Positions 50,659 to 53,600 of a stretch of 64,000 nucleotides of DNA are shown here, piece after piece. The stretch comes from Shigella phage sb3. The notes beneath the pieces are model-generated. The model was not told the DNA's origin. It worked only from the letters and a program-made list of their open reading frames with translations, and did no database searches. The translations under genes and the position numbers were made by a program. The stretch lies in the sequence record PQ666541; one strand, 5' to 3'. Positions within the stretch are counted from its first letter, which is position 1, and the number at the start of each line of letters is the position of its first letter.

Positions 50659-53600
50659 ATGGCCGAGATTAAAAGAAAGTTCAGAGCAGAAGACGGTCTG
50701 GACGCAGGTGGCGATAAAATAATCAACGTAGCTTTAGCTGATCGTACCGTAGGAACTGACGGTGTTAACGTTGATTACCTAATTCAAGAAAACACAGTTC
50801 AACAATATGATCCAACTCGTGGATATTTAAAAGATTTTGTAATCATTTATAATAATCGTTTTTGGGCAGCAACGGATAATATTCCAAAACCTGCTGGAAG
50901 TTTTAACAGAATTCGTTGGAAAGCATTACGTACTGATGCCGTATATACAACCGTATCATCTGGACCATATCAATTAAAATCCGGAGAAGCAATTTCAGTA
51001 GATACATCAGTTGGTAATGACATTGAGTTTAATTTACCGCCTTCTCCGCTTGATGGAGAAACCGTAATAATTCAAGATATTGGTGGAAAACCTGGTATAA
51101 ATCAGGTTTAAATTGTAGCTTCAAATCAGAGTATTGTTAATTTTAGAGGTGAACAAGTACGTTCAGTTCTAATGACTCATCCAAAGTCACAGATGATATT
51201 CATTTTTAATAATCGTTTGTGGCAAATGTATGTTGCTGATTATAACAGAGAAGCTGCGATTGTTACTCCATCAACTGCATATCAAGCACAATCTAATGAT
51301 TTTATCGTGCGTAGATTTACTTCCGCTGCGCCGATTAATATTAAACTTCCGAGATTTGCTAATCATGGCGATATTATTAATTTCGTTGATTTAGATAAAT
51401 TAAATCCACTTTATCATACAATTGTCACAACATATGATGAAACAACTTCAGTACAAGAAGTTGGAACTCATTCTATTGAAGGCCGTACATCGATTGACGG
51501 TTTCTTGATGTTTGATGATAATGAAAAATTATGGAGATTGTTTGACGGGGATAGTAAAGCACGTTTACGCATTATAACAACTAATTCTAATATTCGTCCA
51601 AATGAAGAAGTTATGGTATTTGGTGCGAATAACGGAACAGCCCAAACAATTGAACTTCAACTTCCAACCGATATTTCCATTGGTGATACTGTTAAAATTT
51701 CCATGAATTACATGAGAAAAGGCCAAACAGTTAAAATCAAAGCTGCTGGCGAAGATAAAATTGCTTCTTCAGTTCAATTGCTGCAATTCCCAAAACGTTC
51801 AGAATATCCACCTGAAGCTGAATGGGTGACTGTTCAAGAATTAGTTTTTAACGGTGAAACTAATTATGTTCCAGTTTTACAACTTGCTTATATAGAAGAT
51901 TCTGACGGAAAATACTGGGTTGTACAACAAAACGTTCCAACCGTAGAAAGAGTTGATTCTTTAAACGATTCTACTAGAGCAAGATTAGGCGTGATTGCTT
52001 TAGCTACACAAGCGCAAGCTAATGTCGATTTAGAAAATTCTCCACAAAAAGAATTAGCAATTACTCCAGAAACATTAGCTAACCGTACTGCTACAGAAAC
52101 TCGTAGAGGTATCGCGAGAATAGCAACCACTGCTCAAGTAAATCAGAACACCACATTCTCTTTTGCTGATGATATTATCATCACTCCTAAAAAGCTGAAT
52201 GAAAGAACTGCTACAGAAACTCGTAGAGGTGTTGCTGAAATTGCTACGCAACAGGAAACTAATGCAGGTACTGATGATACTACAATCATCACTCCTAAAA
52301 AGCTTCAAGCTCGTCAGGGTTCTGAATCATTATCAGGTATTGTAACCTTTGTATCTACTGCAGGAGCTACTCCAGCTTCTAGTCGTGAATTAAATGGTAC
52401 AAACGTTTATAATAAAAACACTAATAATTTAGTTGTTTCGCCTAAAGCTCTAGATCAGTATAAAGCTACTCCAACGCAACAAGGCGCAGTAATTTTAGCA
52501 GTTGAAAGTGAAGTAATTGCTGGACAGAGTCAAGAAGGATGGGCAAATGCGGTTGTAACGCCAGAAACGTTACATAAAAAGACATCAACTGATGGAAGAA
52601 TTGGTTTAATTGAAATTGCTACGCAAAGTGAAGTTAATACAGGAACTGATTATACTCGTGCAGTCACTCCTAAAACTTTAAATGACCGTATAGCAACTGA
52701 AAGTTTAAGTGGTATAGCTGAAATTGCTACGCAAGTTGAATTCGACGCAGGCGTCGACGATACTCGTATCTCTACACCATTAAAAATTAAAACCAGATTT
52801 AATAGTACTGATCGTACTTCTGTTGTTGCTCTATCTGGATTAGTTGAATCAGGAACTCTCTGGGACCATTATACCCTTAATATTCTTGAAGCAAATGAGA
52901 CACAGCGTGGTACACTTCGTGTAGCTACACAAGTTGAAGCTGCTGCAGGAACATTGGATAATGTTCTAATAACTCCTAAAAAGCTTTTAGGTACTAAATC
53001 TACTGAAGCGCAGGAAGGCGTTATTAAAGTTGCAACTCAGTCTGAAACTGTGACTGGAACGTCAGCAAATACTGCTGTATCTCCAAAAAATTTAAAATGG
53101 ATTGTACAGAGTGAACCTACTTGGGCAGCTACTACTTTGGTAAGAGGCTTTGTTAAAACTTCATCTGGTTCAATTACGTTCGTTGGTAATGATACAGCTG
53201 GTTCTACGCAGGACTTAGAACTATATGAGAAAAATAGCTATGCAGTATCACCATATGAATTAAACCGCGTATTAGCAAATTATTTGCCGTTAAAAGCAAA
53301 AGCTGTAGATAGTAATTTATTAGATGGTTTAGATTCACTCCAGTTCATTCGTAGGGATATTGCGCAGACGGTTAATGGTTCACTAACCTTAACGCAACAA
53401 ACGAATCTGAGTGCCCCTCTTGTATCATCTAGTACTGCTACGTTCGGTGGATCAGTTTCGGCAAATAGTACATTAACTATTTCTAATACTGGAACAGCAA
53501 CTCGTCTGATTTTTGAGAAAGGACCTCAAACTGGGACGAACCCAGCTCAAACGATGACAGTCAGAGTGTGGGGAAATCAATTCAGCGGTGAATCGGACAC

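Follow-up and report, generated by a model that had tools for sequence, protein, structure and literature searches.

The in-frame ochre codon in gene 34 of Shigella phage sb3 (sequence record PQ666541) is best explained as a template-guided consensus artefact that belongs to the record and not to the phage, a reading given a probability of about 0.86. The codon is a chimera of two sense codons. It is almost certainly uninformative on phage biology and represents no novel feature. The window, i.e. the whole 64,000-nt stretch of the record that was analyzed, is a Tequatrovirus (T4-like) segment that extends from the tail sheath gene to past gene 38.

The interrupted gene 34

The ochre codon is read directly from the sequence. 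It lies between two open reading frames that share a frame, 50659..51111 (150 aa) and 51172..54528 (1118 aa), and translation confirms an earlier remark that this TAA alone separates them. Positions 50659-54528 translate to 1289 codons with a single internal stop (...GKPGINQV*IVASNQSIVNF...), and just two of the 1290 codons translated from gene 34 are stops: the internal TAA, which is codon 151, and the terminal one. The features of this locus are the following.

50617..50624, + strand: TATAAATA, candidate T4-type late promoter upstream of gene 34 (consensus match by eye)
50659..54528, + strand: gene 34, long tail fibre proximal subunit, 1289 codons including the TAA (translation, tblastn, Pfam, synteny)
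51109..51111, + strand: in-frame TAA, chimeric codon (alignment, locus panel, simulation)
51109..51118, + strand: 10-nt pSs-1-type patch (T.AATTGTAG) in the P922-type 5′ part of gene 34 (alignments, simulation)
51172..54528, + strand: mechanical downstream open reading frame of 1118 aa, which begins at the first ATG past the stop (ORF list, homologues)

The promoter is a predicted site; it was matched to a consensus that we take, from established T4 knowledge, to be that of T4-type late promoters. Ribosome-binding motifs (GGAG/GGGAG) precede gene 34 at 50646-50656. A direct reading of the sequence before the ATG at 51172 reveals no Shine-Dalgarno-like GGAG.

The two open reading frames are one gp34 gene interrupted in the record and not a chance pair, since they share a frame, align together with full-length gp34, match it in length and carry its Pfam domains downstream. 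With tblastn, gp34 of phage pSs-1 is covered over residues 1-1290 by the window at 94% identity, with exactly one stop. The combined reading of 1289 aa equals the gp34 length in the closest relatives, which bears out the preliminary description on this point as well. The 1118-aa frame displays the C-terminal domains Gp34_trimer (PF21446) and Gp34_2nd (PF21560), with hmmscan scores of 110 and 129 bits (cut-off 27). Gene order is rnh-34-35-36-37-38, and the gene is collinear with gp34 over its full length in the expected place between rnh and 35-36-37-38. The one property of gp34 genes that is missing from the window is an uninterrupted frame, which is present in all 41 relatives; the 1118-aa frame is an independent gene in no relative examined. 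At its phage-proximal end, gp34 connects the long tail fibre to the baseplate by way of gp9 (PMC5537660).

In another T-even record, MT968995 (vB_EcoM_WL-3), the annotation breaks rnh and the 5′ end of gene 34 into a number of small hypothetical open reading frames. This split annotation suggests frameshift errors, and thus another record of low quality in the same region.

Gene 34 in related phages

The 5′ part of gene 34 is matched by about 500 phage records. The best matches are P922, EcNP1, YUEEL01, Killian, T4_ev240 and fPS-90, with identities of 98.6-98.8%. Over the 141 nt around the stop the best identity falls to 95.7%, with no closer record.

Relatives were surveyed as IMG/VR loci and as contigs from an RNase H look-up. 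At the position of the stop, 31 of 31 IMG/VR and GenBank loci encode K, L, Q, T, V, N or I in a continuous protein, and in 10 of 10 further contigs, found via the neighbouring RNase H gene, gp34 is 1289-1290 aa in length with a sense codon at the site. All 41 homologous loci therefore have a sense codon and an unbroken gp34. None has a gp34 that starts at the downstream Met, an arrangement that the preliminary description had named as one that would refute it. The sense codon, which the preliminary description proposed to establish by alignment to relatives, is AAA (Lys) in the allele family of this gene and TTA (Leu) in pSs-1/T4-type genes.

An exact-pattern scan of IMG/VR for the patch of the window, in which any codon was allowed in place of the stop, gave no match. 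The combination of this patch with a P922-type background is found in none of 180 matching phage records and in no IMG/VR contig. The exact products of the 150-aa frame, the 1118-aa frame and gp35 have no counterpart in public assemblies. A large protein search yielded just four proteins, all of them distant, and no close relatives.

Make-up of the chimeric codon

Around the stop, the two allele types and the window read as follows.

P922 type: GTT AAA ATA AAT TCT TCA AAT
pSs-1/T4 type: GTT TTA ATT GTA GCT CCA GTG
Window: GTT TAA ATT GTA GCT TCA AAT

On both sides, the window agrees fully with the P922 type over 60 nt (100% identity). Positions 51109 and 51114-51118 are pSs-1-type and 51110 is P922-type; the TAA thus takes its T from the pSs-1 codon TTA and its second-base A from the P922 codon AAA. 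The 10-nt patch differs at six positions from the allele family of its flanks, and all its bases derive from one of the two known alleles.

When the P922-type sequence is aligned to pSs-1, the optimal global alignment under BWA-, bowtie2- and minimap2-like scoring has two indels of 4 nt each, an insertion of AAAA after GTT and a deletion of GTAG, together with a T>A mismatch at 51110. The patch is almost certainly the footprint of this insertion and this deletion, both left unapplied. In a read-tiling simulation in which substitutions were applied and indels ignored, the 30 nt of the window at this site were reproduced exactly, i.e. the aberrant codon is predicted from the alignment of donor to template. 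The simulated output is 99.2% identical to the window, compared with 98.6% and 86.6% for the two parents. Three donors were combined with three scoring schemes. In each of the nine simulations, the first 646 codons of gene 34 had a stop at 51109 and no other, and both parents have no stop in these codons.

The simulation is crude, its donors are proxies and alignment was end to end; with local (clipping) alignment and a mismatch penalty of -4, 305 of 901 positions are unmapped. Outside gene 34 its success was partial. With proxy donors, two of three stops in an alt-like gene were reproduced and one was missed; in nrdB a stop arose at the same codon, but as TAA instead of TAG; and the TAG of frd.2 was obtained with one of five donors. 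Incomplete reproduction is expected with proxy donors and an unnamed pipeline, yet it is a limitation.

Excess collinearity with pSs-1

Along 62 kb, 2146 substitutions separate the window from pSs-1, but small indels number only five. In a 12.9-kb region around rnh, the window shows two gap openings and no unaligned nucleotides relative to pSs-1, whereas the ranges in ten similarly diverged natural relatives are 9-25 gap openings and 20-2072 unaligned nt. The window thus has fewer length differences from pSs-1 than equally diverged natural relatives do.

Substitutions and indels are asymmetric in the alt-like gene. The substitution sites are mixed, with 171 in the pSs-1 state, 193 in the state of phage KFS-EC3 and 15 in neither, while 16 of 16 indel events are in the pSs-1 state. 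If indels followed the substitution mix, this outcome would arise by chance about six times per million (0.47^16, from these counts).

The window also has a long stretch of complete identity to pSs-1.

56476..59889, + strand: 3414-nt run 100% identical to pSs-1, which takes in almost the whole of gene 37 and extends into gene 38 at its start (comparison with pSs-1)

The longest identical run expected at the mean divergence of the window is about 220 nt, and the rest of the window differs from pSs-1 on average once per 29 nt. Gene 37, which encodes the distal, receptor-binding part of the fibre, is normally the most variable fibre gene. The stretch may represent template retained where reads did not map, and not the phage's own host-range gene.

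A small length difference is present just downstream of hoc, on the - strand, where a 12-nt insertion relative to pSs-1 (10371-10382) consists of two additional tandem ATTATG units.

Other in-frame stops

When all pSs-1 proteins were compared with the window by tblastn, nine in-frame stops were detected in six genes, gene 34 included. The other eight, which comprise TAA, TAG and TGA codons, are in five genes, and there is one frameshift in addition. These stops are located as follows.

25744..26178, - strand: second alt-like gene, stops TGA (first base 26178), TAA (25962) and TGA (25746) (tblastn, allele comparison)
30097..30535, - strand: two small genes of the 30.3 region, stops TGA (30099), TAA (30448) and TAG (30535) (tblastn)
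40983..40985, - strand: in-frame TAG in nrdB (tblastn, allele comparison, simulation)
46907..46909, - strand: in-frame TAG in frd.2 (tblastn, allele comparison, simulation)

Most of these stops are in patches of unusual divergence, the best identity to any known phage being 81% in alt and 87% in nrdB. The stops in the alt-like gene, in nrdB and in frd.2, and two of the three in the 30.3 region, are located at allele junctions or unresolved indels. Random sequencing noise was considered and rejected, as nearly all of the odd bases occur in other known alleles.

In the second alt-like gene, the window switches every 20-80 nt between the pSs-1 allele and the KFS-EC3/NBG2 allele. The pSs-1-type segments include bases private to pSs-1, and very few bases fit neither allele. 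The alt-like ADP-ribosyltransferase genes form a tandem pair at 22963-27075, as in pSs-1, and the two paralogues share about 40% identity. The first is intact (99% identity to pSs-1) and the scrambling is in the second only.

The donor type of the 30.3 region (JoYop, FL12, T4) contains 320 nt of unrelated sequence where the window, at the pSs-1 length, has a 140-nt pSs-1 segment (30395-30534) with scattered odd bases. The TAA at 30448 and the TAG at 30535 are in this segment or border it. The bases underlying the TGA at 30099 are found in neither pSs-1 nor JoYop. In one of the two genes the start codon ATG is changed to ATT.

The nrdB gene has OES_C-3-type flanks, and its most divergent core is pSs-1-type. 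Within this core, a 14-nt OES_C-3 string, ATTTACAGAACTAG, sits 2 nt out of register, and the in-frame TAG is present because this shift brings the out-of-frame TAG of the string into frame. The divergent patch (40976-41035) is near the point where alignments to T4 and RB3 break off; these two phages have a group I intron with I-TevIII in nrdB, and the window, pSs-1 and OES_C-3 are intronless here. The frd.2 stop results from a class-II base (C at 46907) that adjoins a class-II deletion absent from the window.

Between frd and frd.2, a single G is missing at 46181 (CAGAAAAC to CAAAAAC), and this frameshifts an 81-aa gene. The G is present in nine of nine relatives aligned. Unlike the stops, the deletion is in a well-conserved context, and either a true mutation or a simple sequencing error may account for it.

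Proposed origin of the record

The observations can be accommodated by a model in which sequence data of at least one other T-even phage, as reads or as contigs, were aligned onto pSs-1 or onto a template nearly identical to it. The consensus would have taken over substitutions and a few simple indels, paired or complex indels in highly divergent patches would have been dropped, and template sequence would have stayed wherever the donor failed to align. In gene 34, the donor would be of the P922/EcNP1/YUEEL01 type, with GTT AAA ATA AAT TCT TCA. If the mismatch was kept and both indels were dropped on the pSs-1 sequence GTT TTA ATT GTA GCT CCA, the product would be GTT TAA ATT GTA GCT TCA, which is the sequence of the window.

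The window does have five simple indels relative to pSs-1, and the rule is therefore not one of no indels at all. T-even genomes are naturally mosaic, and some patches may have a true recombinant origin. Natural mosaicism, however, predicts neither template-only indel states nor out-of-register segments. A literature search found no relevant paper on a genome built by mapping onto pSs-1. The analysis shows the chimeric codon, the additional stops, the surplus collinearity with pSs-1 and the reproduction by simulation; from these we infer the depositors' use of such a pipeline and the true phage sequence. The real phage most probably has an intact gp34 of 1289 aa, with AAA ATA AAT TCT encoding Lys-Ile-Asn-Ser at residues 151-154.

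Alternative explanations

A simpler error would be a single base-call or polishing change, T>A at 51110 (GTTTTAATT read as GTTTAAATT with a shifted homopolymer boundary), in a phage that truly carries the TTA ATT GTA GCT patch in a P922-type gene 34. TAA is indeed one substitution away from TTA and the change is at the boundary of a T-run and an A-run, but the explanation is very improbable: it requires a genuine 10-nt pSs-1-type patch in a P922 background, for which the 180 records and IMG/VR offer no example, and it leaves the other eight stops and the indel asymmetry unexplained. Template-guided consensus yields the patch and the stop together with no extra event. Of the base-call error originally proposed, the error itself is upheld; a single miscalled base is not, as the codon is one of at least nine stops in a chimeric consensus on a pSs-1 template. 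A real ochre nonsense allele, in a suppressor-dependent or defective phage or as a complemented variant in a mixed stock, is very improbable. The record as given has the stop, T-even phages recombine very frequently, and the T of one allele joined to the A of the other is what recombination within the codon (AAA x TTA), or of a short patch, is expected to produce. The fibre attaches through the proximal end of gp34, however, and fibreless T4 particles do not adsorb; a phage with this allele would thus form no plaques on an ordinary host. The 64-kb window contains no tRNA genes, and companion stops of all three kinds (TGA, TAG and TAA) mean that no single suppressor fits. Nor is there a single base change in an otherwise unchanged allele, the patch having six differences in 10 nt; four allele switches in 12 nt, or a patch plus a mutation, would be needed. 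The lesion is not isolated, given the eight further stops in five other genes and the frameshift, and the indel asymmetry and the out-of-register nrdB segment are unlike recombination. The suggestion of a suppressor-dependent laboratory allele is thus not sustained. A specific form of it, in which the TAA is physically in the phage DNA through intracodon recombination or short-patch mismatch repair (Lys AAA x Leu TTA) in a mixed infection and is kept by complementation from a co-infecting T-even phage, is more doubtful still.

Translational explanations of a functional fibre, i.e. programmed readthrough, reinitiation at the ATG at 51172 or stop reassignment, have a negligible probability. They can draw on the shared reading frame only. 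The stop is conserved in no homologue, the residue at the position being K, L, Q, T, V, N or I and never a stop, and reinitiation would have to proceed without a ribosome-binding motif; readthrough or reinitiation, as put forward in the preliminary description, is contradicted by both findings. For readthrough and reassignment, no suppressor tRNA is encoded in the window. Reassignment was rejected on this ground and because all three stop codons are in frame in the other broken genes, while gene 34 has only its internal TAA and its terminal stop.

Use of the record

The value of the finding is as a quality warning for the sb3 record, including nrdB, alt, frd.2 and gene 37. The record is unfit for inferring a split or suppressor-dependent fibre gene, or pseudogenes of nrdB, alt and frd.2. 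It is equally unfit for inferring a host-range determinant, because gene 37 may simply be pSs-1 sequence. A real stop, if true, would be a modest curiosity of phage genetics that opens no new question.

Comparison with known systems

The gp34 genes closest to that of the window are those of P922 (OR999189), EcNP1, YUEEL01, Killian, T4_ev240 and Yersinia phage fPS-90. The nucleotide identity of 98.6-98.8% extends over the promoter and the first 1.04 kb, the sequence flanking the stop is identical for 60 nt in both directions, and the protein is likewise of 1289 aa. These genes differ in having AAA ATA AAT TCT (K-I-N-S) where the window has TAA ATT GTA GCT. The gp34 genes of pSs-1 (NC_025829) and of T4 type have TTA ATT GTA GCT, to which the patch is identical except at 51110. 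Collinearity with pSs-1 extends over the entire window, at 96.5% identity. On either side of the patch, however, the sequence diverges from pSs-1 gene 34 at many sites (86.6% identity over 50700-51600), and pSs-1 gp34 has Leu (TTA) at the codon where the window has the stop.

Conditional-lethal nonsense mutants of T4 gene 34 are part of the T4 genetics literature. They likewise have a premature stop, which in a host without a suppressor would lead to fibreless particles unable to adsorb. The classical mutants, however, are single-base changes in a wild-type background that were selected on suppressor hosts, whereas the window displays a 10-nt foreign patch and eight other stops in 64 kb. Another parallel is with reference bias in guided consensus building or polishing of a divergent genome. 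As is generally known of such bias, the template length is preserved at each complex indel, template sequence is kept where the donor is unalignable, and chimeric codons and out-of-register segments appear at junctions, all of which is seen in the window. The window differs in that a few simple indels were transferred.
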